Made by a program: the position numbers and the translations under genes
Virus record (IMG/VR): IMGVR_UViG_3300047586_000105
Location: 1-52,271 of that record
Strand: one strand, 5' to 3'
Source: a virus
Lineage: Duplodnaviria > Caudoviricetes
Length of the DNA: 52,271 nt
The notes under the pieces: generated by a model
Database searches by the model: none
What the model saw: only the letters and a program-made list of their open reading frames with translations
Told to the model about the DNA's origin: nothing
Part shown: piece after piece, positions 20,062-47,452 of the stretch
How positions within the stretch are numbered: position 1 is the first letter of the stretch
How the letters are laid out: each line of letters starts with the position of its first letter

Positions 20062-22257
20062 TCAACCCGTCATCACGGCACCCGGGCCACCGCCAGCGCC
20101 CTGCATCTGGGCGGCGACGGCGGCCGGGGCGATACTCGTCTGTTGGGGCGGACCCTGCGGACCGGCGGGAGCGCCCTGTTGGGGCATCGCCTGCGCGGCC
20201 TGCATCGCCTGCCACTGGTACATCAGGTCCTGTCGCTTCTGGGCGGCGAGTCGCGCGATCGCGTCCGCCGTCTCGTCCTGCGTCAACTCCGAGAGGGCGT
20301 CGAGGTGCGCCTTTAGGTCATCGTCCCGCAGGCGGGGGTACTGCGTCTCGACCTGCCCGAACACGAGGAGTGCGGCGCGCTGGACCCACGGATGCGCGAT
20401 GCTCGTCTCGTGGAAGTTGTTCTGCTCGCGGAACTGCGCCGTGAGGTGCAGGATGGCGTTCGTGATGGCCTTGGCCCGACGCTTCTGCACCGCCTTGGGA
20501 TAACTCTCGTCACCGAAGATCATCGGGTTCGGGTACGCCCGACGCGCTTCCTCGGTCGAGAGGAAGGGCTGCTTGTCGGCGCCCATCGTCTGGCAGAGTT
20601 CGAGGACTTCCTGCGCCCGCAGTTCGGGACTCGGCCCGAAGGCGTTCACGAGTTTGAACGAGGGCGGCTGGTCCGAGAGTTTCGTGTTGTCGATGTAGGG
20701 ATCCACGAGATGCCCGTACTCGTCCCCGACGATGCGGATGAGCCACGGCACGTTCCCGTAGGTCTTCATCTGCCGCCAGCACCCCACGGCGAAGTCGCAG
20801 GCCGAGCGCCGGAACCGCTGGTTCACCGGCCCGTGCACCGTGTTGTCCGCCTGCTGGAGGGCCACGATGGCGCGATAGGCCATCCGGGACCCGGGCGCTT
20901 CCCCACGCGAGGATGCCTGGTAGCCGCCGCCCGTGAAGATGGCCCTCCGCTTCTCGTCGGCTTCCCGCTCGAGGCCCTGGAGGATGTAGGCGGGCCACTC
21001 GATGGCGCGGGGTCGCCAGGAGGCGAGACTCGGCTCGATCTCCATGATGTTGTAGCCGCCGAGGTCGCCCATGTCCTCGTGAATCGCGCCGCCGGGGGCC
21101 ACGATGGGCGACTCCATCGCCCGATTCAGGAACTCCCACTTCTTGGAGAGTGCGATGTTGAGGTCCACCTGCTGCTGGTCGCAGTCCTCAACCCACGGCT
21201 TCCCGAGGATGTCGTCGGCGCGGTGATGCGAGTAGAACAGCGAGAAGGAGAAGTCCTTCGCTGGCAGGGCCTGGTCCGCGAGCGGGACGACGTGTCCAGA
21301 GCCCGTCTGGCCCCGCAGGAGGTCCACCGTGCCGGGCACCCCCACGATCTGGAGCCGCCCGTTCGGGTAGTCGGTCAGTACGCCGGGCAGCGTCTCGCGG
21401 CAGAGGAGGAGGAGGAGTTCCTCGGAGCCGTCCTGCCCTGCCCGCTGATTCAGGACCGGGGAGCCGTGGACGCCGAGGCCGTCCATCTTCCACTGGCGCG
21501 CGATGCGCTGGAACACGGAGGCCGATGGCATCCGGGTACTGCCCTCCAACCCCGCCGCCTCGGGGACGTTGGCGAAGTGCTTGCGGACCATTGCCGCCGG
21601 CAGTACCCGCCCGTAGGAGCAGGCATAGGCCGACCCCCGCTTGGCCCCGACATCGAACACGGTGTCGAAGGGGTTGCCGACCCAGCAGTCGATGGACCCC
21701 GGATGCGGCGTCGCCGTCCCGTCCGGCACGTCCTCGTAGTCCCCGGAGGCGTCGTCTCGCCAGTAGCGGTGCACCGGGCAGAAGCCCGCAGGCATCGCCA
21801 TGTAGAGGGCGTCGGCGAACACCCCGTTGAGGTCCTGGGCGTCCGCGAGGTAGTTCATCCACAGCATGTCCACCAGCGCCCGGTCCCGGGACTTCCGGTC
21901 TGGCGTCGAGTCGGCGAAGTAGCGCAGCGGCATCGTGGTGTGGTGCGCCACGGCATTGTCAACGATGAGGCGGAGGCAGTTCTCGGTCTTGCGGAAGTCG
22001 GAGATAAGACGCGGGATGGCAATGCGTTGGCCCTCAAAGATGGCCGCCCACTGGGCATCACCTGCGCCGTCAATGTGCAGGAGCAGCATCTCGGAGATGA
22101 GGTCGCGTTCCCGACGTGCCGTCAGGCCCGCCTTGTGGAGTGTGACCACCATCTGGGCGTCCGCCTGGGCCGTGCGCCGTCCCTGAGCGTCCACCTGGTT
22201 CTGCGCGGGCGCGGGAGCGATCGGAGGGGGCGGCGTGCCGACCTGGGGTGCGGTCAA
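20062..22257 (-). CDS. Portal protein
   Basis: ~730 aa (likely TTG start overlapping the upstream TGA); NPFDTVFD, GKPWVED, SRGEAPG..AYRAIVALQQAD; Q/P/G-rich tail; between terminase and scaffold. Confidence 0.8.
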   Translation of the reverse strand: MTAPQVGTPPPPIAPAPAQNQVDAQGRRTAQADAQMVVTLHKAGLTARRERDLISEMLLLHIDGAGDAQWAAIFEGQRIAIPRLISDFRKTENCLRLIVDNAVAHHTTMPLRYFADSTPDRKSRDRALVDMLWMNYLADAQDLNGVFADALYMAMPAGFCPVHRYWRDDASGDYEDVPDGTATPHPGSIDCWVGNPFDTVFDVGAKRGSAYACSYGRVLPAAMVRKHFANVPEAAGLEGSTRMPSASVFQRIARQWKMDGLGVHGSPVLNQRAGQDGSEELLLLLCRETLPGVLTDYPNGRLQIVGVPGTVDLLRGQTGSGHVVPLADQALPAKDFSFSLFYSHHRADDILGKPWVEDCDQQQVDLNIALSKKWEFLNRAMESPIVAPGGAIHEDMGDLGGYNIMEIEPSLASWRPRAIEWPAYILQGLEREADEKRRAIFTGGGYQASSRGEAPGSRMAYRAIVALQQADNTVHGPVNQRFRRSACDFAVGCWRQMKTYGNVPWLIRIVGDEYGHLVDPYIDNTKLSDQPPSFKLVNAFGPSPELRAQEVLELCQTMGADKQPFLSTEEARRAYPNPMIFGDESYPKAVQKRRAKAITNAILHLTAQFREQNNFHETSIAHPWVQRAALLVFGQVETQYPRLRDDDLKAHLDALSELTQDETADAIARLAAQKRQDLMYQWQAMQAAQAMPQQGAPAGPQGPPQQTSIAPAAVAAQMQGAGGGPGAVMTG

Positions 22258-22565
22258 CGCATCATTCCCTGCGCTGGGGGTCCGGGAGGCGTTACGGCGG
22301 CTCCACGCGCCATCTGGGTCGCGGGGTGGTTCTGCTCGAACCACGCCCGCACCGCGTTGGCGTCCTCGGCGGGACCCTCACCCTTCTCGGCCTGCACGGG
22401 GAACGTGGTGCCGCACTTGGGGCACGTCTGCGTGGCGAGCGCCCCGTTGACCGTCGGCTCCTGCGGACCCTCGGCCTCGGCGGTCGGGGGACCCTGTGGC
22501 CCTGCGGGAGCGGGTGGCCCCGCTCTGCCCGCCATCATCGCCAACCGACCCAGTGATTCGCCCAT
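22254..22565 (-). CDS. Small Pro-rich protein with a CPKCG knuckle
   Basis: 103 aa ORF coupled to the portal start. Confidence 0.5.
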   Translation of the reverse strand: MGESLGRLAMMAGRAGPPAPAGPQGPPTAEAEGPQEPTVNGALATQTCPKCGTTFPVQAEKGEGPAEDANAVRAWFEQNHPATQMARGAAVTPPGPPAQGMMR

Positions 22566-22585
22566 GTGACCCCCGGAGACGAGAA

Positions 22586-22626
22586 CAGCCCGACCCGCGC
22601 TGCGTCTGGCAGCACAGGCCGGGCTG
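22586..22626 (-). terminator. 18-bp hairpin, terminator/attenuator-like, upstream of the head operon
   Basis: Minus strand CAGCCCGGCCTGTGCTGC-CAGAC-GCAGCGCGGGTCGGGCTG (with G:U pairs) followed by TTCTCGT. Confidence 0.5.
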
Positions 22627-22696
22627 AGGGGGTTCAGGCTCCGGCGACCCCACCCTTGGTTCCGGGCGCGGTCGGTACTACGTCACGATACCGATT

Positions 22697-22903
22697 CTAC
22701 GACGCACCCTCCTCGCTGTCAAGGTGGCGTGACAGTGGCTCCTTCCCGAGTCGGCGTGTCTCGGTGCGCCGAACCCCCATCGGAATCCCGTCCTTGAAGT
22801 CCAAGGCGAGGTTTCCGGTGAAGCCCGTCTGTGCGGCTCGCAGGACCTCGTCCACCACCTCCCGAACCCGGGGGCTGGTCACGTAGGAGGGGGCGTGGCT
22901 CAT
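22697..22903 (-). CDS. Small DUF2292/YezD-like protein
   Basis: 68 aa; GFTGNLALDFKDGIPMGVRRTET pattern. Confidence 0.5.
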   Translation of the reverse strand: MSHAPSYVTSPRVREVVDEVLRAAQTGFTGNLALDFKDGIPMGVRRTETRRLGKEPLSRHLDSEEGAS

Positions 22904-23280
22904 GCGGCGGACACCGGGGACGGCTCGACCTCACCGGGGTTGGCAGCACCCGGTTGGCCCGCGCCTGGACTCGCGGGTTGCGGCTCTGCCGTTCTCCCCG
23001 GTGCCGTCGCAGCATCTTCCTTCGGCTTCGTGAACCACGCGGCGAGCGCGACGAGTGCGGCCCACGTCTTCTTGCCCCGACTCCGGAACGGGTGTTCCAG
23101 CGCCCAGATGCGCTCCCGGAGCGGCTTCACCTGCATCCCGTCGAACATCACGAGGGCCTCGGAGACCTTGCCGCAGATTTCCTGGTTGAACGCGGCCAAA
23201 GTGCGCTCAAGGCCGCCAATTCGCACCGGGGTCCGCGAGAGGTTCTGGCCACGCTGGGGGTGCTGACGCTTCGCGCTCAC
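22900..23280 (-). CDS. Hypothetical protein
   Basis: GTGA overlap at 23277-23280; MSAKRQHPQ... Confidence 0.5.
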   Translation of the reverse strand: MSAKRQHPQRGQNLSRTPVRIGGLERTLAAFNQEICGKVSEALVMFDGMQVKPLRERIWALEHPFRSRGKKTWAALVALAAWFTKPKEDAATAPGRTAEPQPASPGAGQPGAANPGEVEPSPVSAA

Positions 23281-23624
23281 TCTGTCTGCTCCTCGGCCAT
23301 CACCTCGGCCACGATAGTTGCCCACGGCGTGCCTCGAACGTGCCTTCGCCACGCCACTGCCGTCATTTCCCTTCGGACCGTCCGGTTGCCGAAGGCCGCG
23401 ATGTACTTCACGAGTTCGTCGGGCATCGGCTCCGGAGCGGGACGCGGCTGGCGTGGCTCCTCGGAGAGTCCCGCTTCGCTGCGCCCGATGCGCACGAGGG
23501 CGTCGGTCAGGCGGTCCACCTCGGCGCGGAGGTGCTCGACCTGACCCATCGCGTCACTGAGGCGAGCGCGGACTTGCTCCGCTGCGTCGTCGAAGCGAGC
23601 GCGACTGACCCACGGCCAGATCAT
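23277..23624 (-). CDS. Hypothetical coiled-coil protein
   Basis: ATGA overlap; MIWPWVSRARF... Confidence 0.55.
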   Translation of the reverse strand: MIWPWVSRARFDDAAEQVRARLSDAMGQVEHLRAEVDRLTDALVRIGRSEAGLSEEPRQPRPAPEPMPDELVKYIAAFGNRTVRREMTAVAWRRHVRGTPWATIVAEVMAEEQTE

Positions 23625-24028
23625 GGCGTTCTCGTCGATGGACGGGTCCACCATGAATGGAAGTTGCGGATAGCCACCGCGCGCCGCCGCCCTAGTCGTT
23701 GCTCCGGCGTGAATCGCGCACGAGATGGTCTGCCGACGTGCCTGTTGCGATATGGGTGCTGTGCGTTCCACAGGTCTTGCTGTCTCCGTGCGGACACCCT
23801 CGCACATGGGCCTGGGCACCTCTTCCGCGGAGCACCGCGGTATCCCGAAATAACGGGCTTACCGCACTCCAAACACATCTGAGCCGAGCCTACAGTCACC
23901 AACTGTCCAAGGTGTTTCCCGACACGGATGGTGATGACGCTGGGTTGGCCGTGCGCCAACAGTCGCTCGGTGTCCGCGCCATCGACACGTCGCTGCCATA
24001 TGTCGATTCGGACGCCCGCGCTCGTCAT
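23621..24028 (-). CDS. Hypothetical zinc-finger protein
   Basis: ATGA overlap; CLECG...CPGPC. Confidence 0.45.
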   Translation of the reverse strand: MTSAGVRIDIWQRRVDGADTERLLAHGQPSVITIRVGKHLGQLVTVGSAQMCLECGKPVISGYRGAPRKRCPGPCARVSARRQQDLWNAQHPYRNRHVGRPSRARFTPEQRLGRRRAVAIRNFHSWWTRPSTRTP

Positions 24029-24249
24029 TGCGACTCCCCTTCCGTGGCCTTCGCAATCTTCTCGCGGATGTCGGTGACGAACTGCCGGGTGCGCGACGCG
24101 GATGCCTTCTCTAGTCCACGCTCTAGCCCGAGTCGGTGTCCTCGCATGAACAGTTTCTCGGCGTCCCGCATCAACCGCACGGCCCCGTGCAAGCGACCGA
24201 CCCAGTAACAGACGAAGGCCGTGACGAGCACGGCGATGACGGTCCACAT
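24025..24249 (-). CDS. Small protein with N-terminal transmembrane helix
   Basis: MWTVIAVLVTAFVCYWVG. Confidence 0.55.
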   Translation of the reverse strand: MWTVIAVLVTAFVCYWVGRLHGAVRLMRDAEKLFMRGHRLGLERGLEKASASRTRQFVTDIREKIAKATEGESQ

Positions 24250-24251
24250 GG

Positions 24252-26015
24252 TCAGACTCTCCCTCGGTGGGCGAACTGGCGCCGGATGCGCCGCTCCTCG
24301 GCCTGTGCGTGCTTGGCGTGCGCGGCAAGGCGTTTTTCCAAACCCGTATCACGATTTCGGTCTACCTTCTGCGTCTTGGGCGCCAGATGGGCGCGGTCGG
24401 GCGAGCGGGGACGCACCCAGTTCCCGTAGGCCACGGCATCGGCCTTGTCGGGGGAACGTCCAACGCGGGAGCGGATGTGCTCCTTGAGCGCTAGCGTGAT
24501 CTTGCCGCCCGGCTCCTCGTACTCGATGGCCGTCAGTTCCTCGAAGAGTCGCTGGTCCTTCGGCAGGCCGATGCGGTTGAGGCGCAGGTCCTCGCGGAGC
24601 CGCCAGAAGACTTGGGAGCGGACATTCGCGTAGCGTTCGGCCTCGGGCACGACGGGGCCGGCAGGGCGGAGCGCGCCCTCTTCGTCCTTCCTCGTCTGGC
24701 TCCACTGGCCCTCGATGTCGATGGCGGGCACCGCGCGCTCGCCGCCTGAGATGCGGCGGACGCGCACCCCGAGCCGCACGAGTTCATTGACGGTGCTCGC
24801 TCCGACCCCTACCGAGTCGATGCCCACGTTCCGGGGACTGATGGGCGCGTCGGGGTTCGTCATCTCCCGGTGCACGATGCGCCCCACCTCGGAGGCGTCG
24901 GCGGCGACGAGGTACTCGACTTCCGTGCACACCGCGCCCTGCCAGCGCGAGACGGCGCTCTTGTCCCCCGTCGGGGAGTCGGCCACGTCCACGCCGAGCG
25001 AGAGGGGTCCGTCACGCAACTTCTCGTCGCCCCACCGACCCGCTGCCGATTCGCACCAGTCCCACCGGATGAGTGCCCTCTTCGACTGCGTGGGTGCGAT
25101 ACCCCGGACACGGGAGAGGTAGATGGGGTCGTCCTGGTTCCCCCCGGCGTCCGCGAGGCGGCGCGCGATGCTCTCCGGCGTGACGGCACCGGGAATGATG
25201 TCGCGCCCCGTCACGACGTTCGGGTGGTCGAGTGCGGAGATGCGGACCGCCTTGACCCACGGGCGCGCAGCGAAGAGGCCGAGCGTGTCGTAGCGGTGGT
25301 CCGGGTTGCCCATCCCGAGGATTGGGTTGAAGCGCCCCGTCGCCGTGTTGATGATGGTGTTCACGAGCGCCGTATCGACGCCCGGCATCTCCTCGACGAG
25401 CCACAGCATACTCGGATGGTGGAAACCCGCGAGGCGCTGGGCCACATCCTCCTGTGCTCCGACGCCAGCCGCGAACGCCGTGGCGGCCCACACCTCTTGG
25501 TCGCCCTGCCCGTCCATCATCCGCAACTTGCCGGTGAGGAGCGCCGCGTTCGGGAAGTGGCGCTTGAATCTTGGATACAGGCGGCCGATTTCTTTCCAGA
25601 GGTTGAGGAGGAGCTGCTCTTGCTTCGGCGCGATGCTGAGGACGATGGAGTTCGTGTGAGTAGCGAGGAACCACAGTGCCCCGCAGGCACCGAGTCCGTA
25701 CGTCTTCCCCGTGTTCGTCCCCGAACTGACGGCGACGCTCCGACCCTCGGCGAGTTCGTTCAGCACGAGCGGGATGGGGTCGATGTCACCATCCCATTCG
25801 TGTGTCGCGTAGCCTTCGTTCAGCGACCACCGGAGCGTGTTCTCCGGCACCCCGAGGTACTCGACGATCCATTCGAGCGGGCGTTTCTGGTATGCCGTGT
25901 GGGCCACCGCGCCCGACGTCCACAGTCCCGCCCGCTTGCGCCGCTCGACCTCGGCCTCGGCCTTGGCGCGGGCGAGTTCGAGTTCGGCGGGCGAGGCGGC
26001 GCCGGGGATGCTCAC
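24252..26015 (-). CDS. terL: Terminase large subunit
   Basis: GTGA overlap start; Walker A SSGTNTGKT, Walker B-like LWLVEE, GMGNP; RNase H-like nuclease LGVDVA...GIDSVGVG...GRSPDKADA. Confidence 0.9.
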   Translation of the reverse strand: MSIPGAASPAELELARAKAEAEVERRKRAGLWTSGAVAHTAYQKRPLEWIVEYLGVPENTLRWSLNEGYATHEWDGDIDPIPLVLNELAEGRSVAVSSGTNTGKTYGLGACGALWFLATHTNSIVLSIAPKQEQLLLNLWKEIGRLYPRFKRHFPNAALLTGKLRMMDGQGDQEVWAATAFAAGVGAQEDVAQRLAGFHHPSMLWLVEEMPGVDTALVNTIINTATGRFNPILGMGNPDHRYDTLGLFAARPWVKAVRISALDHPNVVTGRDIIPGAVTPESIARRLADAGGNQDDPIYLSRVRGIAPTQSKRALIRWDWCESAAGRWGDEKLRDGPLSLGVDVADSPTGDKSAVSRWQGAVCTEVEYLVAADASEVGRIVHREMTNPDAPISPRNVGIDSVGVGASTVNELVRLGVRVRRISGGERAVPAIDIEGQWSQTRKDEEGALRPAGPVVPEAERYANVRSQVFWRLREDLRLNRIGLPKDQRLFEELTAIEYEEPGGKITLALKEHIRSRVGRSPDKADAVAYGNWVRPRSPDRAHLAPKTQKVDRNRDTGLEKRLAAHAKHAQAEERRIRRQFAHRGRV

Positions 26016-26218
26016 CCGACGAGCGCGAGGTGGTGATGGCCTGCAGGTTGCGCCGCGAGAACGCGCTGCTGGCACGCCTCACAGGTGGTCGGTGCCCAAG
26101 TGCCGTCCCAGTCGTGTTGCACGATGGTCGTGGTGCACGGCGTGTTCGTCGCGGGGTCGAGGACCACCTCACAGGTGGCGAAGCGCCACGACGCCGGGAT
26201 GTCGCGGATAGCAGTCAC
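26012..26218 (-). CDS. Small Cys-containing hypothetical protein
   Basis: 68 aa coupled to genes on both sides; C...C...CEAC. Confidence 0.5.
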   Translation of the reverse strand: MTAIRDIPASWRFATCEVVLDPATNTPCTTTIVQHDWDGTWAPTTCEACQQRVLAAQPAGHHHLALVG

Positions 26219-26919
26219 TCTTCGGTGCTCGCGCGGCGTGCGATGCGGCCCACGGACCGGAGGTTCGCGACCGGCGTGGCGATCGCCGCTCGGAGCGCGG
26301 GCATCCGCTTCTCCAGCCAGCCGGGGTTCTGCGCCACGCCGCCCTCGGAGGCCGTATCGGGGATGCTGCGGTAGTACTCCTCACGCAACGCCAAGTACTT
26401 CTCGGGGTCGCCACCACTCGCCGCGAGCATCTGCTTCGCGATACCGGGGCCGTGCTGGACTGCGGCGTCCATATGCACGAGGCCGAGGTTCGGGGGCAAC
26501 GTGTTCGCGCCCGACCGCGTCCAGAGGTCGTGCCAGACCCGCATCCCATACTGCGCCGACTCGTGCGGGTCCGCCTGGTTGTATGTGTCGCCGGGGTGGG
26601 TCCGGTGGTACTCCTCCTCTTGGCCACCCGGCGCCAGTCCCTCTCCCGACGCCATGAAGTCCGCGAGGTGCCCACCGCGGACTTGTCCGGAGTACCCCGG
26701 CCGGGATTCCTGCTCGGCGATGAAGCGCATGGCGCGCATGAAGTTCGCATCGTTCTGCGGACTAGGGGCGGTTGCCGGACCGATGAGCGGTACGGGCCTC
26801 TGGCTCTCTACTGGGTCGGTCGTGAAGACCGCCGTGGCGTCGGGGGTTGCCACCGCAGACCCCAGAAGGCCCGCGACGGCGAGAGGCAGACTCCCTTTCG
26901 GGAAACGTGGTGCGGTCAT
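26215..26919 (-). CDS. GH108-like lysozyme / endolysin with a C-terminal peptidoglycan-binding helix
   Basis: RBS AGGAGG; LPPNLGLVHMDAAVQHGPGIAKQML, LALREEYYRSI, GWLEKRM. Confidence 0.65.
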   Translation of the reverse strand: MTAPRFPKGSLPLAVAGLLGSAVATPDATAVFTTDPVESQRPVPLIGPATAPSPQNDANFMRAMRFIAEQESRPGYSGQVRGGHLADFMASGEGLAPGGQEEEYHRTHPGDTYNQADPHESAQYGMRVWHDLWTRSGANTLPPNLGLVHMDAAVQHGPGIAKQMLAASGGDPEKYLALREEYYRSIPDTASEGGVAQNPGWLEKRMPALRAAIATPVANLRSVGRIARRASTEE

Positions 26920-26937
26920 CGTCCCTCCTGTCGTGGA

Positions 26938-27045
26938 GGCGGACCGGGGGAGTGCCTTGGCTGGGGGCGCGGACCTTGTGTAAGGGACTGGCACGGATGG
27001 CCAGCGCCGCGGTGATCCCAGGTGCCCTCTCCCCCGAGTACCGCC
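26938..27045. ncRNA. Candidate structured intergenic RNA (long stem closing a three-way junction)
   Basis: GGCGG/CCGCC, CGGGGGAG/CTCCCCCG, TGGG/CCCA and CGCGG/CCGCG enclose two hairpins CCTT-GTGT-AAGG and CTGGC-ACGGATG-GCCAG. Confidence 0.35.
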
Positions 27046-27048
27046 AGC

Positions 27049-27273
27049 TCAGTCGTTGCCCTTGTGCGCGCGGGCGATGGAGCCGATGGCGTTGAGCGCG
27101 AACTGGGCGCGCTTCTTCGTCCGCGTTGCCGCTCGGGAACCCGCCGCGAGAGACTTGTGGGCGAACTCTCGGACGGTCATGCCCGCCCGCTTCGCCTGTG
27201 CGGTGAAAGATCCGGTGGTGCCTTTCCGCTCCATCTCGTCCCGCGCCGTCTGCAACCAGTACTTGTCGGCCAT
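27049..27273 (-). CDS. Small basic phage protein
   Basis: RBS AGGAGG; KYWLQ...KGTTGSFTAQAKRAG...KKRAQFALN. Confidence 0.65.
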   Translation of the reverse strand: MADKYWLQTARDEMERKGTTGSFTAQAKRAGMTVREFAHKSLAAGSRAATRTKKRAQFALNAIGSIARAHKGND

Positions 27274-27301
27274 CGTGCCCTCCTGTGAGTCATCCTACGA
27301 A

Positions 27302-27668
27302 TGGAGCCGAGGGGAATCGAACCCCTGTGCAACGCGCAGTTCCGGCGTCGAGCTACGAGCGTTCCCGAGTTCAAGTCCCGGGCAGACTGGGAGCGACCGA
27401 CTTCATCACTCCTCCACCAGCGCGGTTTGTCGGGGCTGCGCGGCCCGTATAACCGCGGCGCTTGGGTTCTCACGGTGCGCCGCAACCGTGGCGTTCACGG
27501 CTGCCTAAGCAGCCATCGCGACCGGCCGCTCATACTGCGGAGCGACCCGACCTCGGAACGCGAGCACCTTGCCCGAAGGCTTGGCATTTGAAGCGTGGGC
27601 CGCATAGGCGCGTGCCCATCTCCGCTCGCCCTTCCCCTTCACTGCCGCTGTCGAAACCTGTCGGCCCC
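27302..27668 (-). ncRNA. ssrA: tmRNA (one-piece, 367 nt); tag reading frame 27585-27505 = AKPSGKVLAFRGRVAPQYERPVAMAA*
   Basis: 5' GGGGCCGA-CAGG-TTTCGAC; 3' T-arm AGGGG-TTCGATT-CCCCT then CGGCTCCA; acceptor stem with G3:U; helix 2 pairing CAGCG-GCAGT with ACTGC-G-CGTTG; tag ends in AA with TAG in the loop of hairpin GGCTGC-TTAG-GCAGCC; CCA not encoded. Confidence 0.93.
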
Positions 27669-27697
27669 GTACCTCCCGTCGCCCTAGCGACACCTTG

Positions 27698-27726
27698 ACA
27701 GTATGCCGACACCCTCGCGCCATCAA
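27698..27726 (-). promoter_or_regulatory. Sigma70-type promoter for the tmRNA
   Basis: TTGATG-17 nt-TACTGT about 30 nt upstream of the tmRNA 5' end. Confidence 0.55.
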
Positions 27727-28340
27727 GTACCCGTCACCTTGGCGCGACGTCCACGCTCCTCGGTGATGCGGTTGAGGCACTCGGCGTAACCCGCCATGTC
27801 GGTCCGATTGTCGCGCTTCGGCTGATAGGTCTCGCGGGACACCTTGAGGAGCACCATACAGAGTGCCACCTGTTCGGCGGTCACGGGTATCCCGAGGACG
27901 CCAGACCACATGACTCCCGTGCGACTGAAGTCATCGAGTGGGTGCCCGTAGGTTGCCCCGCGATCGCCGTAGACGAGTCGCCGGGCTTCCTCCAGTACCG
28001 TCTCGTGCTTCGGGATAATGAGGTCGAGTGTGTCGGCATCGAGGACCGGGATGCCACATTGCTCGGCGACATACACCTCCAGCCGCGCGCCCACGCTGTC
28101 CCGCCAGCCGGGAAGCACGGCCACGGCGTCCGACCGGCAGACCTCCGGTAGGTCGAGCGCCATGTAGTAGGCCGTCGGCTTCACGGCGTCCGTGGCAGGA
28201 TTGAAGCCCTCGGACTCGTCGCGTTCGGCGGGCGACCAGACGTCGTGCCCGAGGTCGCGGAGCCGCCGTGCAGCCGCGTGGAAGGCGGGGAACCCAAAGT
28301 CGGGCAATCCCCGCATCTTCCCCGATAGGTAGACGCGCAT
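27723..28340 (-). CDS. Fusion of a DUF4406 (nucleoside 2-deoxyribosyltransferase-like) domain and a DUF6378-like helical domain
   Basis: MRVYLSGKMRGLPDFGFPAF...SPAE...LPGWRDSVGARLE; then RLVYGDRGATYGHPLDDF...VALCMVLLKVSR...DNRTDMAGYA. Confidence 0.75.
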   Translation of the reverse strand: MRVYLSGKMRGLPDFGFPAFHAAARRLRDLGHDVWSPAERDESEGFNPATDAVKPTAYYMALDLPEVCRSDAVAVLPGWRDSVGARLEVYVAEQCGIPVLDADTLDLIIPKHETVLEEARRLVYGDRGATYGHPLDDFSRTGVMWSGVLGIPVTAEQVALCMVLLKVSRETYQPKRDNRTDMAGYAECLNRITEERGRRAKVTGT

Positions 28341-28495
28341 CAGGTCAGTCCTTCCAGTCCAGCGAGGCGCCGGAGTTCTGTGCGGGCGGCGACGAGTTCG
28401 GCGAAGACAATCGCTTTCTCGGTGCGACGCCACTCCTCTTCAGCCAACAGGAGAGTTACCACGGCGTGGAGCAACTCCCGGTCGGACTCACTCAT
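28340..28495 (-). CDS. Hypothetical protein (51 aa)
   Basis: MSESDRELL...; TGATG overlap with the next gene. Confidence 0.45.
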   Translation of the reverse strand: MSESDRELLHAVVTLLLAEEEWRRTEKAIVFAELVAARTELRRLAGLEGLT

Positions 28496-28705
28496 CCGGT
28501 TCTCCCTTCCCGCGCAGGGCCGCCACGACGGCGTCCTCGCAGTGGTCAACGAACGCCTGCTGTGACGCCTCGGCCCGATGCCCCGAGAGTGACCAGCCGC
28601 AGGAACACCCGACCGTCCGTGTGAGCGAATTGACGAGTATCAACTCGTGCGCTCGTGCGCTGCCTTGGCTGCTGCCCAGTCGAGGTGCGAGGGACGGGCG
28701 CTCAC
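28488..28705 (-). pseudogene. Small H-CxCGW-H protein frameshifted by an 8-bp tandem duplication
   Basis: CGCACGAG occurs twice in tandem at 28644-28659; removing one copy joins MSARPSHLDWAAAKAAHE to LILVNSLTRTVGCSCGW...FVDHC (69 aa). Confidence 0.5.
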
Positions 28706-29133
28706 ACCTTCGGCTTCCGGCGCACGGACCGCACTTGCCACCGCTCCTTGGTCGCGTGGAGGTACAGCGTGGGGTACTTGATGCCGGTATCGCGTGCCGC
28801 AGCGGCCAGCCCCAGTCGGGCAGCGACATACCGTGCCCGGTGGAGTTCGTCCCGCGTGCAGATGCGGTAGCGACACCCAGTACCCGACCGCGTGACGACC
28901 GAAGCCGAAGGCGTGCGAGCGAGTGGTTGCACGACCTTCGTGAACGTGTGCCGGCGCTCGAACCGCTGCAGCCGCTCGATCTCCCGGCGACAGGGCTTGC
29001 AACCCCACAACACCTTCCCGTTGCCGTCGGTGTAGGGCGTGAGCGGCTTCAAGCAAATCCAGCAGTCGCCGCCCTTGTTCGCCGCTGTGTCGAGCAACCG
29101 GGCGAGTGTCATCCCTTTCCGGGTGTGGGTCAC
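28702..29133 (-). CDS. Zinc-finger plus HTH-like protein
   Basis: CWIC...CKPC; AAARDTGIKYPTLY. Confidence 0.5.
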   Translation of the reverse strand: MTHTRKGMTLARLLDTAANKGGDCWICLKPLTPYTDGNGKVLWGCKPCRREIERLQRFERRHTFTKVVQPLARTPSASVVTRSGTGCRYRICTRDELHRARYVAARLGLAAAARDTGIKYPTLYLHATKERWQVRSVRRKPKV

Positions 29134-29221
29134 GAGAGGCCGCCTGTTTCACGTGCAACAGTCGGAAGTCCGACCGTCGCGGTCGTGATGAGCGGGGTCC
29201 GCGTCAGCCAGCCGCCGCGCT

Positions 29222-30310
29222 TCACGCCGTGTCCTCGGTGAACGTCTGGCCGCGTGGAGTCAGGAACGCTCCCGGGCGCGCGTGCTCCCAGAGCCCTGGT
29301 CGGTAGTCCTTGCCGTCGCGGCGCGCGAAGAGTGCCCACTTGAACGGCGACGCCACCGCCCGCAGGGCGAAGTCCTTCCGCGTGTGGCCGGTTGGCAGGT
29401 CGGCTACGGTCGCAGCGTAGGTGCGCTCAATCTCCGCAGCGCCATCCTCCACGGTTGCCAAGAGTCGCGCCGCAACAGCACGCGTCCACTCGTGAAACTC
29501 GTCGGGGAGTGGGGCGATCAACTCGGCGATGGGCTTCCCGTTCTTCAGATGCTCCCAGACGGTGCGCTCGTTGAGGCCAGTCACGAGGCGATGCAGCGCG
29601 ACGTAGTCCTCCTGCTTGAGTTTCACACGCTCGTCCGTCGAGAGAACATGTACGACCAGCCCCTCCGCATTACGACGAACCGGAGCGGTAAGCGCGGCGG
29701 TGAGCGTCGGATAGTCGAAGCGCGCCGCGCGGGGTCCGGGCCAGTTTGCCACGTCCTCACCTGGGATGCTCCGCCCTGTGGCGATACTCACGCCCGCAAG
29801 CAAGAACAGGTCGTCGGTCGCCCCGTAGTCCACGACGATGCGATTGCTCGGGTAGACGATCTCGAAAAGGAGCGTGAGGCCAGCCGGAGGCGCGTAGTCG
29901 GAGTACCGCTCCGCCCAAAGCGCGGTGGCGTGTAGGGCCTGTTCCCCCGCAAAGGAGCCGCGCGTGGCGATGGCGTGCCCGTCCGGTATCGGGTAGAGAA
30001 TCCCCAGGCTGCCGTCGAGCTTGTCGGTGACGGACGCGGGGGAGTCGAGGTCGAGTTGCGCCCCGCCGGACTGGCCGTAGTTGAAGAACTTGCGGAAGGG
30101 TCGCGCCACAACCTCGCGCGTGTCCGTCCGGTAGATGAGGCCACGGCACTGGCGCGTCACGGCGTTCCAGGCGCCGTTCTCGTACTGGCACCGCTCGGTG
30201 TAGTTGAGGATCGCCAACGGCAGAGTCGGGTGCTCGCGCCGCACCACGAACCGCTCCTCAAGCATCCGCTCCAAAAGGACCGCGTCGAGCACATCGTCGA
30301 GGGTGCTCAC
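29222..30310 (-). CDS. RNA ligase, T4 Rnl1-like
   Basis: QCRGLI, ARPFRKFFNY, nucleotidyltransferase motif I TDKLDGSLG, ATRGSF, LLFEIVYPSNRIVVDY, EGLVV, RVKLK..DYVALHR. Confidence 0.9.
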   Translation of the reverse strand: MSTLDDVLDAVLLERMLEERFVVRREHPTLPLAILNYTERCQYENGAWNAVTRQCRGLIYRTDTREVVARPFRKFFNYGQSGGAQLDLDSPASVTDKLDGSLGILYPIPDGHAIATRGSFAGEQALHATALWAERYSDYAPPAGLTLLFEIVYPSNRIVVDYGATDDLFLLAGVSIATGRSIPGEDVANWPGPRAARFDYPTLTAALTAPVRRNAEGLVVHVLSTDERVKLKQEDYVALHRLVTGLNERTVWEHLKNGKPIAELIAPLPDEFHEWTRAVAARLLATVEDGAAEIERTYAATVADLPTGHTRKDFALRAVASPFKWALFARRDGKDYRPGLWEHARPGAFLTPRGQTFTEDTA

Positions 30311-30341
30311 GTCGGCTCCCCTGGGGCCACGCGGGAACCGC

Positions 30342-30539
30342 TCACCGGACGCGGATGGCGTGTTCGATGCGTTCGAGGCAGCGGGCTATCTGCTCCAGCA
30401 GGACGACCACCCTGTCGCGTTCGGCCAAGGGGGTCAGAACACGGTCGAGCGCGGGACAGTGCCCGCTCCCGCCCCAGGTGTGGACGCCGAAGATGGTCGA
30501 GCCGCAGTCGGGGCAGAACACGTTGGCGGGCGCGGTCAC
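30342..30539 (-). CDS. Small zinc-binding hypothetical protein
   Basis: GTGA overlap; FCPDCG...H...HC. Confidence 0.5.
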   Translation of the reverse strand: MTAPANVFCPDCGSTIFGVHTWGGSGHCPALDRVLTPLAERDRVVVLLEQIARCLERIEHAIRVR

Positions 30540-30676
30540 GGGATGAGCCGCCAGCCCCAGGTGAACACCACGACCACCGCGTGGCACACGAACCCCAGCG
30601 CCAGTAGGGCGACGAAGACCGCCGCGCCCTGGGCGCAGTCGATCGCGAACACGCGAACCCCAGACTTCACCTTCAT
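30536..30676 (-). CDS. Small membrane protein (46 aa)
   Basis: MKVKSGVRVFAIDCAQGAAVFVALLALGFVCHAVVVVFTWGWRLIP; overlapping stops/starts at both ends. Confidence 0.5.
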   Translation of the reverse strand: MKVKSGVRVFAIDCAQGAAVFVALLALGFVCHAVVVVFTWGWRLIP

Positions 30677-30879
30677 CGTGCCCCCTTCCCATCCGTGTCG
30701 AGTTCCAAGAACAGGTCGGCCAGCGGCGATCGCTCCTCAAGGTTCCGACGGGCCATCTCCCGAGCCGCCGGAAGTCCCTCCAAGAGGGCGGCGTCCACCT
30801 CCGCCAACGTGGGCACCTCGCGCCGCACCGTCAGCGGGTGCCCGTCCAGCGCGCAGAGGAGCCAGCGGAGAAGACTCAC
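30673..30879 (-). CDS. Hypothetical protein (68 aa)
   Basis: GTGA overlap; MSLLRWLLCALDGH... Confidence 0.45.
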   Translation of the reverse strand: MSLLRWLLCALDGHPLTVRREVPTLAEVDAALLEGLPAAREMARRNLEERSPLADLFLELDTDGKGAR

Positions 30880-31037
30880 CGGGGCTTCCGTGTGGCGAGC
30901 CGAGCGACCCCGCCCGTGATGACGTACTGCCTGCCGCAGGACGGACAGGTGAACGTGGCGTCCGCCGCCAGCCAACTCGCCTTGTAGCGCTGGTGCCGAC
31001 CGCAGCGGCACTTGAACCCGCGCCGTGAACCGCTCAC
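30876..31037 (-). CDS. Small zinc-ribbon protein (53 aa)
   Basis: RBS GGAGG; KCRCG...FTCPSCGRQY. Confidence 0.55.
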   Translation of the reverse strand: MSGSRRGFKCRCGRHQRYKASWLAADATFTCPSCGRQYVITGGVARLATRKPR

Positions 31038-31191
31038 CGTGCCTCCATGTCTAGTGTCACGACACCATCATCACACCCTATGCAGGAATGACGATTATAC
31101 ATGACCATTCTCAACTGGACCCGTTGGAACCCGTCTTTGGCGACACTTCCATGCACTTTTCAATACCGCCGTTGAGAACCACCGCGCCAAA

Positions 31192-31217
31192 CTAGTCGCT
31201 GTCACGACACTGCGCCG
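31192..31217 (+). repeat. Left copy of a 26-bp imperfect inverted repeat (partner 36297-36322)
   Basis: CTAGTCGCTGTCACGACACTGCGCCG; its reverse complement matches 36297-36322 at 23 of 26 positions. Confidence 0.7.
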
Positions 31218-31234
31218 CTATTCCGACACCACCA

Positions 31235-31508
31235 CCCGACCCTTAACCCCCACCCCCCTGGGGTGATGCCCTTTGGGCGAAACAGCAGGCCGAGGACGCG
31301 CACATAGCCACGTGAGCCGCCATCCGTGGTTCCGTGCCGGTGGGGGGCTAGGTGGCCTCGTGGGCCGGGCGCTGGCTAGGCCGTCCTCTTCCTTGTCTCC
31401 GCTGCCCCCTGCCTGCCCTCCTGCCTTCCGATCGCTGCGCCGCTGCCCTGCCGTGCTGCCTGCCTGGTAGCGCCGCCCTGCCTGCCATCCCTAGCCGCCT
31501 GCCCTGCC
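31235..31508 (-). repeat. Low-complexity non-coding region after terS: G-run cluster and ~12 GGCAG repeats; candidate packaging region
   Basis: Minus strand GGGGGGTGGGGGTTAAGGGTCGGG at 31235-31258; about 12 CTGCC copies on the + strand at 31402-31508. Confidence 0.55.
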
Positions 31509-31645
31509 TCGCGTCCTGGTGCCGCCTACCCTGCACCGCCACCACACAGGCCACCACATTGCGAGAGTCACACCCTCCCCGAGTCGTCGCAACCCGCTGC
31601 CGCTGTGTGGGTTACACCATCACCGACCAACGGATAGCGGAACCG

Positions 31646-32386
31646 TTACGGCTTCTCCCCTTCCTTACTAGAGGGCGTTCCGGGATCTGCTGGGCCTGCC
31701 GGCAGCGCCCGTACCTTCTCCGACGCCAGGACGGCTAGCGGATGCTCGCCGGCCGCAATCCGTGCGAGCTGGTCATCCCGGAGCCGGGAGTAGTCAATCA
31801 TCGCCAAGCCGCCGCGGACGTTTAGCGTCTGCTGGTCGCTCCACCCCATGTTCTTTAGGGCGAAGATCGAGCCGGTTGGCCGGTCCCGGTCTAGTCGGCG
31901 CTCGTAGTCGGCTTCAACGGCCAGCCTCGCGCGTTTTACGGCGTCACTAAACTCGGGGCGCTCGCCATACCGTTCAAAGCTCTCTCGACTGCTGAGTCCG
32001 AGGGTCAGGATAAGGCCGGTGAGGGTAACGGGTTCCTTGTCTCGTGAGCGCTGTTCGAGGTAGGCGGCTACCCTGATGTCCAGTTCCTCGGGTGTTTCGA
32101 TGATGCGGGGCCGTCCTCCGGCGTGCTTGGGCTTGGTATCGGTGCCCGGTCCCGGCTCCGCCGGCACCCCGGCCCCCGGCCCGGCCCCGGTGCCCGGTGC
32201 CGTCTCTACCGCTCTCCCTGCTGTTATCCCGTTACCGTGAGGCGTGGTGTTCGTGGGATCGGTTGCGGTTGGCGGCGGGGGCGCGCTGGGGTTCGCTGGC
32301 TTGCGGGGCTTCCGGGTGCGGCGCTTCGGCTGCGGCGCGTGCGATGCGCTGGCGTCGAGGGTCGGAGGCGTGGTGTCGTCGTTCAT
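31646..32386 (-). CDS. terS: Terminase small subunit (P22 gp3-like DNA packaging protein)
   Basis: GGRPRIIETPEEL...Y, PVTLTGL, FSDAVKRARLAVE, GSIFALKNMGWSD; Pro-rich N-terminus; RBS GGGAG. Confidence 0.85.
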   Translation of the reverse strand: MNDDTTPPTLDASASHAPQPKRRTRKPRKPANPSAPPPPTATDPTNTTPHGNGITAGRAVETAPGTGAGPGAGVPAEPGPGTDTKPKHAGGRPRIIETPEELDIRVAAYLEQRSRDKEPVTLTGLILTLGLSSRESFERYGERPEFSDAVKRARLAVEADYERRLDRDRPTGSIFALKNMGWSDQQTLNVRGGLAMIDYSRLRDDQLARIAAGEHPLAVLASEKVRALPAGPADPGTPSSKEGEKP

Positions 32387-32441
32387 CACTCCCGAATCTA
32401 GCCGAGGTCGGAATCCCGGCAAGGTGGCGTCATACCGTCCG

Positions 32442-32518
32442 CTGTTACATTCCTGTTACATAGAATGGTCACGGCGTCACAATGTGCCCTTGTTGTGCTC
32501 TGGCCCGCTCCCTACGTT
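32442..32518 (+). promoter_or_regulatory. Divergent control region: CTGTTACAT direct repeat with 11-bp period and a sigma70-like promoter for the + cluster
   Basis: CTGTTACAT at 32442-32450 and 32453-32461; TTGTTG-17-TACGTT at 32490-32518. Confidence 0.5.
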
Positions 32519-32574
32519 GTCGCTTGTCTGACACGGTGCCGGAAGACCGGCACCACACCCCAACCGGAGTCCAT

Positions 32575-32967
32575 ATGGCGCACATCATTCGGGAGCGCGA
32601 GCGGCGCGAGGGCCTCAACCGCGCCTTGTCTTTCCACTGGCGCAACGATACCGGCGCCGGATTTTCCTTCCCGTGCGATGCCAGCGGGAACACGGGCGAC
32701 CTCAACCCGGACGCGGCCCGCAACCTCGCGGCGTGCCTGTCGGGGGCGTTTGATGTGGTGGCCGATGGCGTCGTAGCGTGGCCCTGGGCGTACACGGAAC
32801 CTGCCGCCTTGCGGTGCGACTGTGGGCGGGAAGTGACCCTCGACGGGTTCACTTGCTCTTGCGACTGCGGGCGTGACTACAACAGCGCGGGCCAGCGGCT
32901 CGCGCCGCGCAGCCAGTGGGGCGAGGAAACGGGCGAGTCGTTGGGCGACATTCTGGCGATTCGGTAG
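32575..32967 (+). CDS. Hypothetical zinc-binding protein
   Basis: ATG after GGAG; GFSFPCD, RCDCG...TCSCDCGRDYNSAGQRLAPRSQWGEET. Confidence 0.7.
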   Translation: MAHIIRERERREGLNRALSFHWRNDTGAGFSFPCDASGNTGDLNPDAARNLAACLSGAFDVVADGVVAWPWAYTEPAALRCDCGREVTLDGFTCSCDCGRDYNSAGQRLAPRSQWGEETGESLGDILAIR

Positions 32968-32973
32968 TAGGTC

Positions 32974-33012
32974 GCCCCGCTGCGGGAGGCCCGTTCGACT
33001 CGGGCGCGGGGC
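32974..33012 (+). ncRNA. tRNA-like minihelix (acceptor-like stem plus canonical T-arm)
   Basis: GCCCCGC/GCGGGGC 7-bp stem, 8-nt linker, GCCCG-TTCGACT-CGGGC. Confidence 0.55.
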
Positions 33013-44144: not shown

Positions 44145-44563
44145 GCGCTCCTCGTTTCCACGGCCTTGAGTGCGGCACGGCAGATGGCGAGTGGGGCCGT
44201 GTCAACGTCGTCACTCATCACGAATACGCCACCGCCGAGTTGCTCCGAGACCAGGGCGCTATACTTGCCATTGAGGCGCTTCGTGACGCCGCCCATCAGT
44301 CGCCCGGATGACGTGATCTTCTCGACCACCTCCCACGCGGCGGCGATGTCCGTGGAGTAGGGCCGGAGAACGGTGTTCTTTGCTACGCCGTCTAAGTGTC
44401 CGGTTATGCCGCCGTCCGAGCGCCGCCAACCAGCTAGGAACCCGTCCGGCGATTCGAGATACTCTCCGGGTTCGCCCATCCACTTGGTCAACCACCGATA
44501 ACCCATCACCTTCTCGGCGATGAGGGCGTCCAGCTCCCGGCCAGCGGGGAGATCGTCGCTCAT
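44141..44563 (-). CDS. Phage ABA sandwich domain protein
   Basis: GRELDALIAEKVMG...YSTDIAAAWEVVEK...APLAICRAALKA. Confidence 0.75.
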   Translation of the reverse strand: MSDDLPAGRELDALIAEKVMGYRWLTKWMGEPGEYLESPDGFLAGWRRSDGGITGHLDGVAKNTVLRPYSTDIAAAWEVVEKITSSGRLMGGVTKRLNGKYSALVSEQLGGGVFVMSDDVDTAPLAICRAALKAVETRSA

Positions 44564-45651
44564 GCTGTCCTCGTTTCCACGGCCAAGTCCACCAGCCCGA
44601 GCGGACGACCGATGTAGGCGACCAGTTTCTTGCGGTCCTCAGCGATGACCGACAGCGGCAGCGCGTTCGTCCCCAACTCCCGCGTCGTGGTGCGTTCGTT
44701 GAGGTAGAGGTCGTGCACCTCGGTCGGCACGGCGTGGCCGCAGTACATCTTGACCCGGAACCTCGGGATGCCGGCGTCCTCGGCCCACTGGATGTAGGTG
44801 CGCCGGAAGGTGTGGGGCGTCACGGCGAGGTCGGGGAAGGCCCGAGCGAGCGCCGCCCGGAAACTCTTGGCCGCGTGCTCCGGCTTCGTCAGGGCGCAGA
44901 GGTAGGGCAGCACGCGATCACTGGCGCTCCGCTTCACGCCGAAGACCCGGGTGATGCCGACCTCCGCGTCCTGTCGCCAGCCATCCTCGGTGAACTCCTT
45001 CCACCGCATCCCCGAGGTCACGAGCGACCACGCCGTCCGGGCGTAGCGCGTGGGCAGCAGGATCACGCCGTCCCGGAACTCCTTCACCGTGAGGCCCGGC
45101 TTGTCGGGTCGCGTGTAGGGCATCGCCGGCACCTTGCGGAGCGCGTTCCACAGCGGGGACTCCACCTCGCCCAAAGCCCAGGTGGCGAAGGACATCAGCA
45201 CCCGCTTGTGTCGGTTGAACGTCACCGCAGCCCCCCGGCGCTCGTAGCGCGACTTGAGCGAACGGAGGAGGTCCGGCAGGTCGGAGAGCCGGGCACCCTG
45301 CCGAGCGACCGCCTCGACCTGCGTGATGGCGAGTTGGATGTCCTTCCGGTACGCCTCGGACTTGGGGTAGACCGTCGCGAAGTCCCGCAGTTTCGGCAGG
45401 AGTGGAGCGGAGGTCCGGGTGTCCCGCGCCACGAGGTCATTCAGTGTCCCGGTGGAGACGGCGTTGTAGACCTGGAGCGGGCTCACCTGTCGGTCGTAGA
45501 GTCGCTGCAGGACATCAATGCGCCCCCGCTGGACACACATCCGGACGGCGGCCCGGACATCCTGCACGAGTTTGGGGTCACTCGTGCCGACGTGCCGATG
45601 GATGCGGCCCACGCCGGGGATGACGATGTCGAGCGAGGGAGTGCCGGTCAC
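44560..45651 (-). CDS. int: Tyrosine recombinase / integrase
   Basis: Catalytic motifs SGMRWKE, VK, HTFRRT, CGH, LY. Confidence 0.8.
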   Translation of the reverse strand: MTGTPSLDIVIPGVGRIHRHVGTSDPKLVQDVRAAVRMCVQRGRIDVLQRLYDRQVSPLQVYNAVSTGTLNDLVARDTRTSAPLLPKLRDFATVYPKSEAYRKDIQLAITQVEAVARQGARLSDLPDLLRSLKSRYERRGAAVTFNRHKRVLMSFATWALGEVESPLWNALRKVPAMPYTRPDKPGLTVKEFRDGVILLPTRYARTAWSLVTSGMRWKEFTEDGWRQDAEVGITRVFGVKRSASDRVLPYLCALTKPEHAAKSFRAALARAFPDLAVTPHTFRRTYIQWAEDAGIPRFRVKMYCGHAVPTEVHDLYLNERTTTRELGTNALPLSVIAEDRKKLVAYIGRPLGLVDLAVETRTA

Positions 45652-46206: not shown

Positions 46207-46389
46207 TTAGTTGTCGGTCGTCACCTTCTGGCAACGGCACCCGGCCCATATGCACCGCTCGACCCCGCCCCAGTGACAGTCCAGCGGATGACCGCAGTTC
46301 CTACAGGTGGGCGGCGACGCCACCTTCCGCGGCACCCGAGCCGACTTGACCGGATTGGGCCGCGCCACCGCATCCTTCGGGCCACTCAC
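46207..46389 (-). CDS. Small zinc-binding protein
   Basis: CRNCGH..DCH...C...CRC. Confidence 0.5.
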   Translation of the reverse strand: MSGPKDAVARPNPVKSARVPRKVASPPTCRNCGHPLDCHWGGVERCIWAGCRCQKVTTDN

Positions 46390-47309: not shown

Positions 47310-47452
47310 TCCGCCACCTCCTCGACTACGCCGCCCTGCTTCTCGAAGTCCGCAGGCCCCAGCGCGAACACCATGATGTCCGCTGCCTGGTCTACGGCGT
47401 CGTCCACGCTCTCGGCCTCGACCGTGATGGCCACCTTGTACCGCTTGCTCAC
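47306..47452 (-). CDS. Hypothetical protein (48 aa)
   Basis: MSKRYKVAITVEAESVDDAVDQA...; overlaps at both ends. Confidence 0.55.
   Translation of the reverse strand: MSKRYKVAITVEAESVDDAVDQAADIMVFALGPADFEKQGGVVEEVAE

Follow-up and report, generated by a model that had tools for sequence, protein, structure and literature searches.

The window analysed here is the IMG/VR virus record IMGVR_UViG_3300047586_000105, taken in its entirety (52,271 bp; CheckV completeness 100%). The small and large terminase genes of this phage, terS and terL, both lie on the minus strand with 5,570 nt between them, and the gap holds, among other genes, an ATP-dependent RNA ligase of the Rnl1 family and a one-piece transfer-messenger RNA (tmRNA). 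On balance, the gap is probably a mosaic patch or hotspot of ~12 independently collected accessory genes within the packaging-structural operon and not one system. Judged from their sequences, the Rnl1 ligase and the tmRNA are each plausible candidates for translation-maintenance genes, and these two RNA-acting members probably act independently. The original prediction, made from the DNA letters without database searches, had read the gap as a single undescribed module serving against host RNase toxins. Its inventory was largely borne out: a co-oriented insert separating terS and terL by ~5.6 kb, the Rnl1 ligase (PF09511, phrog_562, 2c5u), a fusion of NDT-like and DUF6378-like domains (PF14359 and PF19905), the tmRNA (ARAGORN and Rfam), a small basic protein (g74, pI 11.0) and several microproteins with Cys pairs (g53, a 65-aa open reading frame (ORF) and g68, with four Cys each, and the N-terminus of g143). 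The missing Pnk that it remarked on is missing genome-wide. As for the counter-RNase role, the Rnl1 ligase and the tmRNA are real and of kinds that the literature links to such a role; the combination of the gap genes into one module fell, because its members do not co-occur.

The gap genes do not co-occur in other loci

Co-occurrence was assessed in two sets of loci. The first consisted of 45 fetched IMG/VR loci, with their flanks, in which the encoded ligase is 27-57% identical to that of this phage; several of the tRNA-adjacent loci in this set are near-duplicates. The second consisted of 80 fusion or DUF6378 loci (L047-L126). None of the 45 Rnl1 loci contained a homologue of the fusion, g143, g259, g74, g69, g68, g53 or terS (tblastn, E<=1e-3). 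Conversely, Rnl1, Pnkp and tmRNA were found in none of the 80 fusion loci, and some tRNA was present in 15 of them. The IMG/VR loci with g74 homologues gave the same result, with no tRNA or tmRNA within 5 kb and no other gap gene in any of the 19. A tmRNA was detected 4-6 kb from Rnl1 in four of the 45 loci (L013, L014, L015 and L017), all from a single lineage of ~130 kb whose genomes have large tRNA arrays. No tmRNA above the cut-off was found in the whole records of L002, L003, L005 and L007 (0/4), the two closest Rnl1 relatives among them, and the same four records have no homologue of the presumed portal of this phage, a 760-aa ORF at 20062-22344. The co-occurrence check thus fails for a single module.

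The ligase belongs to the T4 Rnl1 family and looks intact

The ligase matched PF09511 (RNA_lig_T4_1) with an E-value of 9.8e-10 (39.1 bits against a cut-off of 28.3) and phrog_562 with an E-value of 3.3e-64. In its alignment with T4 Rnl1 (2c5u; E 4.8e-11), the KxDGS, FE, EG and KxK blocks were in register, and the aligned motif residues are essential in T4 Rnl1. Eleven positions, R56, K74, F75, K97, D99, G100, E150, E216, G217, K230 and K232, were invariant in the ligase and 23 relatives (24 sequences). The AlphaFold2 model had a pLDDT of 90.1, with helices from 234 to 343, and its best Foldseek match was again T4 Rnl1 2c5u (E 8.6e-18, 367 columns, TM 0.54), with the C-terminal helical domain included in the match; the runners-up were fungal Trl1 ligase domains. 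By its motifs and predicted fold, the ligase looks intact. It fell below the NCBIfam equivalog cut-off for T4 RnlA (TIGR02308; 57.6 bits against 242.25), and its sequence identifies it as a member of the T4 Rnl1 family, not an equivalog. The closest ligase of an isolated phage was that of Arthrobacter phage Seahorse, with 51.6% identity.

A location between terS and terL would be explained if the ligase were morphogenetic, like T4 gp63 in tail-fibre attachment, and the name of its PHROG family does include 'tail fiber protein attachment catalyst'. However, that name stems solely from T4 gp63. All catalytic residues are invariant across the 24 sequences, the relatives accompany the RNA-repair genes Pnkp, RlaP and phosphoesterase, and the Seahorse gene lies in the replication region. 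A morphogenetic function is therefore very improbable.

The ligase lacks the Pnkp partner of its lineage

Of the 45 Rnl1 loci, 30 had a Pnkp homologue in the flanks that were fetched (24 with an alignment of at least ~300 residues and 6 partial), and the three loci closest to the ligase studied here are among these 30. The homologue lay mostly 0-3 kb from the ligase. The AAA_33 kinase and HAD_PNKP phosphatase were confirmed by Pfam in L002 and L007. These two loci also encode RlaP, L002 additionally encodes a phosphoesterase, and L005 encodes a HAD_SAK_2 protein. In Seahorse, the RNA ligase gp81 is followed by the polynucleotide kinase gp82 in the replication region. Two Pnkp queries found no match in the genome of the phage studied here (tblastn). 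A six-frame search of the whole genome returned no HAD_PNKP (PF25109), AAA_33 (PF13671), Metallophos (PF00149) or 2H (PF13563) domain at E<=1, and control genomes were matched in the same search. To judge from the sequence, the genome encodes no recognisable end-healing enzyme and hence no heal-and-seal pathway of the T4 type. Without a healing enzyme, the ligase would need either healing by the host or cuts whose ends can be ligated as the nuclease leaves them.

A quick maximum-likelihood tree with SH-aLRT support placed the ligase in a four-row clade (SH-aLRT 96) with L002, L003 and L004, each of which is Pnkp-linked. This clade was nested in a larger one of 22 rows, 20 of them with Pnkp. 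Since the ligase is nested among Pnkp-linked rows, its orphan state appears to be derived, and it may have arisen by loss of Pnkp or by transfer of the ligase alone. A separate 13-row Rnl1 clade (L024, L025, L028-L035 and L041-L043) had no Pnkp in the fetched flanks, suggesting that orphan Rnl1 recurs among phages. Two ligases of the latter clade, those of L041 and L042, adjoin an array of up to 18 tRNAs.

The tmRNA is the sole tRNA-like gene of the genome

ARAGORN and Rfam concurred on the ends of the tmRNA and on its resume codon, GCC. The match to Rfam RF00023 spanned model positions 1-374 with an E-value of 1.2e-15. The 5' and 3' tRNA-like parts, helix 2 and pseudoknot 1 were aligned with high posterior probability and the middle with low posterior probability. 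The acceptor stem is formed by 5' GGGGCCG paired with CGGCUCC-A and includes G3:U70. The T-arm is canonical (GGGGUUCGAUUCCCC), and CCA is not encoded. The tag given by ARAGORN, AKPSGKVLAFRGRVAPQYERPVAMAA, has 26 residues, with an Ala resume codon and a terminal AMAA, and is followed by a stop codon that sits in a hairpin. The tmRNA gene is full length and, from these features, looks intact. ARAGORN detected no tRNA genes in the genome, leaving the tmRNA as its sole tRNA-like gene. SmpB was not found in the phage genome either, so the SmpB of the host would have to serve the tmRNA. A blastn search of the tmRNA against phage records was empty.

The possibility that the tmRNA is a relic of an attP site was set aside as unlikely: the gene is full length, the sole recombinase-like signal of the genome is sub-threshold and 17 kb away, and no resolvase was found. 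Reading by eye, we noted the hexamers CTTGAT and CATACT, with a spacing of ~16 nt, just upstream of the tmRNA 5' end (27669-27722) and overlapping the fusion stop. They may be a candidate for a dedicated tmRNA promoter.

The ligase could be dedicated to the tmRNA of this phage or to tRNA-like RNAs, resealing them after cleavage by the host, as a two-part kit to which the other gap genes would be bystanders. The two genes are 1,554 nt apart, the tmRNA is the only tRNA-like gene on hand, and the relatives of the ligase lie beside tRNA arrays in 24 of the 45 loci and near a tmRNA in four. However, the four tmRNA-linked loci belong to one ~130-kb lineage that retains a Pnkp-like gene, the four whole records of relatives are without a tmRNA, and no healing enzyme accompanies the ligase here. 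T4 Rnl1 is known for repair of the anticodon loop, and a tmRNA has no such loop. We therefore consider a dedicated ligase unlikely. A related proposal is a two-gene kit suited to small phages. Rnl1 without Pnkp would reseal tRNA-like RNAs with ligatable or host-healed ends, perhaps including its own tmRNA, and the divergent, long-tag tmRNA would rescue ribosomes on cut mRNAs and may escape a nuclease that disables the host tmRNA. This too seems improbable; if true, two genes would replace the sets of tRNAs, Pnkp and ligase carried by big phages.

Several observations weigh against a mosaic of independent genes. Rnl1 is close to tRNA genes in 24 loci and to a tmRNA in four, so the ligase may be functionally linked to tRNA-like genes; the association of Rnl1 with tRNA genes is, by the loci compared, real, though several of them are near-duplicates. 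In 52 kb, any two given genes would fall within 1,554 nt of each other with a probability of ~0.06; adjacency of Rnl1 and the tmRNA alone is weak evidence. The Rfam score of the tmRNA scarcely clears the threshold (47.2 bits; gathering score 47). Should host RNases produce 5'-OH ends, the orphan ligase would be without an obvious substrate. Finally, no kindred phage turned up by megablast with the gap, by tblastn with terL on isolates or by the terL scan of IMG/VR.

The fusion is a separate and common viral family

The fusion starts at the ATG at 28340 and consists of a DUF4406 domain (PF14359, E 3.2e-20) and a DUF6378 domain (PF19905, E 6.5e-25). Its search gave 202 homologues at E<=1e-5, with both domains present in 119 of the 120 listed, and relatives were found on at least 569 stretches of IMG/VR. 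On these sequence matches, the fusion is a widespread stand-alone architecture and a separate, very common viral family. The AlphaFold2 model had a pLDDT of 95.2. The N-domain (residues 1-114) matched 1t1j (Z 12.3), 6evs (Z 9.7) and MilB 4ohr (Z 9.5), and 6evs was also matched by Foldseek (E 2.6e-3), indicating a predicted Rossmann-like fold of the NDT/DNPH1/MilB type and not a kinase or phosphoesterase fold. Residues S82, G84 and E88 were invariant in 32 fusion sequences and form an S-x-G-x3-E type motif, which may correspond to the catalytic-glutamate motif of DNPH1. The YGHP and RDN-x-D-x-GY motifs were also invariant. Searches with the whole-fusion model gave no outstanding structural match for the helical DUF6378 domain. 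In isolates, fusion homologues adjoin genes annotated as DNA polymerase processivity factor or deoxycytidylate deaminase. We read the fusion as a predicted enzyme of nucleotide metabolism (N-glycosidase-like) and not of RNA end-healing.

These results bear on the view that the whole gap is one co-adapted, late-expressed module against RNase toxins, in which an unrecognised protein, the fusion or g143, heals RNA ends. The co-oriented, packed genes with overlapping stops and starts would suit such a module. So would the place of g143, which occupies the slot that Pnkp holds in the ligase loci of relatives, and the recurrence of an Rnl1-tRNA/tmRNA neighbourhood in other phages. In contrast, none of the 80 fusion loci carried Rnl1, Pnkp or tmRNA, and none of the 45 Rnl1 loci carried the fusion, g143, g259 or g74. 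The fold of the fusion N-domain is that of neither a kinase nor a phosphoesterase. For g143, Atlas led to helix-turn-helix (HTH) families only (score 0.89), and from its sequence we regard it, as a lead, as a zinc-ribbon/HTH-like protein; g259 looks lysozyme-like. The top Atlas matches of g259 were PF05838 clusters (score 0.88), with PDB 2ikb/2is5 at an E-value of 0.065, and it had no Pfam, PHROG or NCBIfam match. One co-adapted module is thus an unlikely explanation of the gap.

Layout of the gap and its spacers

The leftward operon begins with terS, and the genes from 32482 onward run in the opposite direction. All gap genes are co-oriented and close-packed, with stops overlapping starts (Table 1).

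Table 1. Features of the terS-terL gap and the genes that flank it, in order of transcription.
Feature	Coordinates	Strand	Evidence and remarks
terS, small terminase, 258 aa	31646..32422	-	PF16677 GP3_package E 3.9e-14; phrog_606 E 2.8e-16
Non-coding spacer, 608 nt	31038..31645	-	No ORF passing the GC3 filter
g53, 53 aa, basic, pI 11.2, 4 Cys (CxC...CxxC)	30876..31037	-	GGAGG ahead of GTG start; zinc-finger family hints weak, E ~0.02
Acidic ORF, 68 aa	30673..30879	-	Chosen start GTG overlaps g53 stop; no family
g46, 46 aa, hydrophobic, membrane-like	30536..30676	-	GC3 0.91
ORF, 65 aa, 4 Cys (CPDC...HC)	30342..30539	-	No family
Rnl1-family ATP-dependent RNA ligase, 362 aa	29222..30310	-	PF09511; phrog_562; fold
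Hairpin-bearing spacer, 88 nt	29134..29221	-	Fold compared with shuffles
g143, basic, pI 10.8; CWIC...CKPC, then HTH-like C-terminal half	28702..29133	-	No Pfam, PHROG or NCBIfam family
g69, 69 aa	28340..28549	-	Stop overlaps fusion ATG; no family above cut-off
DUF4406-DUF6378 fusion, 205 aa	27723..28340	-	PF14359; PF19905
One-piece tmRNA	27299..27668	-	ARAGORN; Rfam RF00023
g74, 74 aa, basic, pI 11.0	27049..27273	-	phrog_20603 E 1.8e-7, function unassigned
g259, hydrophobic N-terminal segment and GH108-like (lysozyme-like) domain, lead only	26215..26994	-	Atlas; PDB
g68, 68 aa, 4 Cys	26012..26218	-	Overlaps annotated terL start by 64 nt
terL, large terminase, 607 aa	24252..26075	-	phrog_2 E 1.9e-17

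A second structured RNA had been proposed in addition to the tmRNA, and it was not confirmed. An Rfam search of 25900-32600 returned no family besides the tmRNA at E<=1. The 608-nt spacer after terS folded no more strongly than its shuffles (z +1.12), and folding of the spacers at 28552-28701, 26995-27048 and 27669-27722 was the same as that of shuffles. Only the 88-nt spacer between Rnl1 and g143 stood out, with a minimum free energy of -44.7 kcal/mol (z -3.50; 1 of 200 shuffles folded equally well). Its hairpin is a plain stem-loop with an 11-bp GC-rich stem and no U tract.

The sequence GGCAGG occurs nine times within 101 nt at 31408-31508, all on the minus strand and 140-240 nt downstream of terS; the genome as a whole has 70 copies, on both strands. 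The cluster could be a protein-binding array, perhaps a pac site or terS recognition site. A TATAAT hexamer was read by eye near 31095-31100 in the 608-nt spacer. A consensus promoter scan of 23000-33000 reported no sites, and thus neither the TATAAT nor the CTTGAT/CATACT site, and a consensus scan of the gap gave no convincing terminator.

Between terL and the presumed portal, at 22345-24251, lie ~1.9 kb of small ORFs without a family match. This suggests that accessory insertions extend beyond the terS-terL gap.

The phage is divergent and its host may be actinobacterial

The genome has a GC content of 67.5%. Megablast with the terS-terL gap found no match among 50,697 phage records. In tblastn searches, terL reached ~25-28% identity at best to the terminases of isolated phages, and a terL scan across IMG/VR revealed no relatives of the phage. 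Most of its structural proteins lack a PHROG family. By these sequence comparisons, the phage is very divergent as well as high in GC.

The host may be an actinobacterium, given the high GC content and given that the best Rnl1 matches were to phages of Arthrobacter and Streptomyces. The tmRNA did not identify a host: its 24-nt 3' end matched 117 tRNA-Ala genes and 43 tmRNAs from many phyla, with a shared stretch never longer than 32 nt, and patterns from its 5' part matched two viral contigs with unrelated tags and five bacterial metagenome-assembled genomes, four of them from Bacteroidota. Nor did a genome scan with RecT, whose single, distant match was to a metagenome-assembled genome of Armatimonadota.

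Two further regions of the genome were noted. At 44560-45651, on the minus strand, a 363-aa ORF matched the tyrosine recombinase family PF00589 below threshold (14.1 bits, E 8.7e-4), and hmmscan at E<=0.01 was empty; the ORF may be a candidate for a divergent integrase. At 46386-49001, also on the minus strand, a recombination pair of RecT and YqaJ exonuclease precedes a gene whose product has a Lar restriction-alleviation domain.

How the ligase and the tmRNA may act

Returning to the preferred reading of a mosaic patch, we infer the substrates of the ligase and the tmRNA, the timing of their expression and a role in counter-defence as follows. Position alone would suggest that the gap is expressed late. 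Among the listed sequencing runs, one DNA run, possibly from the source sample, contained the stretch, and no RNA run did. The ligase would derive from a lineage that normally has Pnkp downstream and would stand alone here. It would seal breaks, likeliest in tRNA-like RNA, that have 3'-OH and 5'-phosphate ends or that have been healed by the host. The tmRNA would be charged by the host alanyl-tRNA synthetase and delivered by the host SmpB. During infection, it would supply extra capacity for ribosome rescue, and the stalled products would receive a long tag peptide with AMAA at its end. The fusion, the GH108-like g259 and the zinc, HTH and membrane microproteins would be unrelated cargo.

Cuts made by VapC/PIN nucleases were considered as a directly ligatable substrate and dropped, because VapC products are treated as 5'-OH in the relevant part of PMC6459853. 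Portions of PMC10264068 and PMC3203893 present proposals that ligases and translation-related RNAs of phages work against defences directed at tRNA, and T4 Rnl1/PrrC is mentioned in such a portion of PMC10264068. The roles outlined here for the ligase and the tmRNA would each be in keeping with these proposals.

Comparison with known systems

In phage T4, Rnl1 (gp63) acts with Pnkp (PseT) to reverse PrrC cleavage of tRNA-Lys. The ligase described here belongs to the same family and shares the motif I lysine, the EG and KxK motifs and the C-terminal helical domain, with 2c5u as its best match. Unlike the T4 pathway, which has Pnkp, this genome is without a recognisable end-healing enzyme, and the ligase scores far below the T4 equivalog cut-off.

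Closer sequence similarity was found to the Rnl1-Pnkp cassettes of actinophages, with the ligase 51.6% identical to that of Seahorse and 44-57% identical to those of the IMG/VR cassette loci. L002 and L007 come from 88-94-kb phages and were the two of the 45 Rnl1 loci with a distant terL downstream of the ligase. In both, an Rnl1-Pnkp-RlaP cassette, joined in L002 by the phosphoesterase, precedes a co-oriented terL by 6-8 kb. The regions concerned span 10001-20002 in L002 and 9518-19026 in L007. In L007, an SsgA-like gene (Streptomyces sporulation) immediately precedes the ligase. The actinophage cassettes are fuller, whereas this genome retains the ligase alone. L002, L003, L005 and L007 are otherwise unrelated to this phage: besides the missing portal homologue and tmRNA (0/4 for each), terL has ~24% identity to those of L002 and L007.

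Cluster BE Streptomyces phages are described, in part of PMC5764925, as having genomes of ~130 kb with 43-48 tRNAs and one tmRNA. The BE-like loci L013, L014, L015 and L017 likewise have a one-piece tmRNA a few kb from an Rnl1 homologue. In contrast to this phage, which has no tRNA genes, the BE-like genomes are 2.5 times larger, their tmRNA lies in a tRNA array and a Pnkp-like gene is nearby. Their tags have 11-13 residues and end in ALAA (ANSKNAFALAA and similar), whereas the tag described here has 26 residues and ends in AMAA.

A further comparison is provided by subcluster K1 mycobacteriophages, for which RtcB together with a tRNA is proposed, in a section of PMC3203893, to act against a tRNA-cleaving defence. 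The likeness, as far as that section goes, lies in a phage RNA ligase and a tRNA-like gene guarding translation. RtcB differs in that it belongs to another ligase family, joins 3'-P to 5'-OH ends and needs no Pnkp. Moreover, the K1 phages are linked to tmRNA in that section through integration at the host gene and not through a tmRNA of their own.

Each kind of part in the gap is known already, including Rnl1 with or without Pnkp, phage tmRNAs such as those of cluster BE1 phages, and DUF4406/DUF6378 proteins. What is new is their setting: a small, tRNA-free genome with a Pnkp-less ligase of a Pnkp-linked lineage, a long-tag tmRNA and a location in the terS-terL gap. The gap also illustrates that neighbours between terS and terL need not form a system, and the DUF4406-DUF6378 fusion merits a study of its own. 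Phage RNA ligases, tRNAs and tmRNAs are increasingly viewed as counter-measures to host immunity that cuts RNA. A 52-kb phage without tRNA genes can hold a tmRNA and a partnerless ligase, and it offers a compact test case for the repair range of an orphan Rnl1 and for the benefit of a phage-owned tmRNA.

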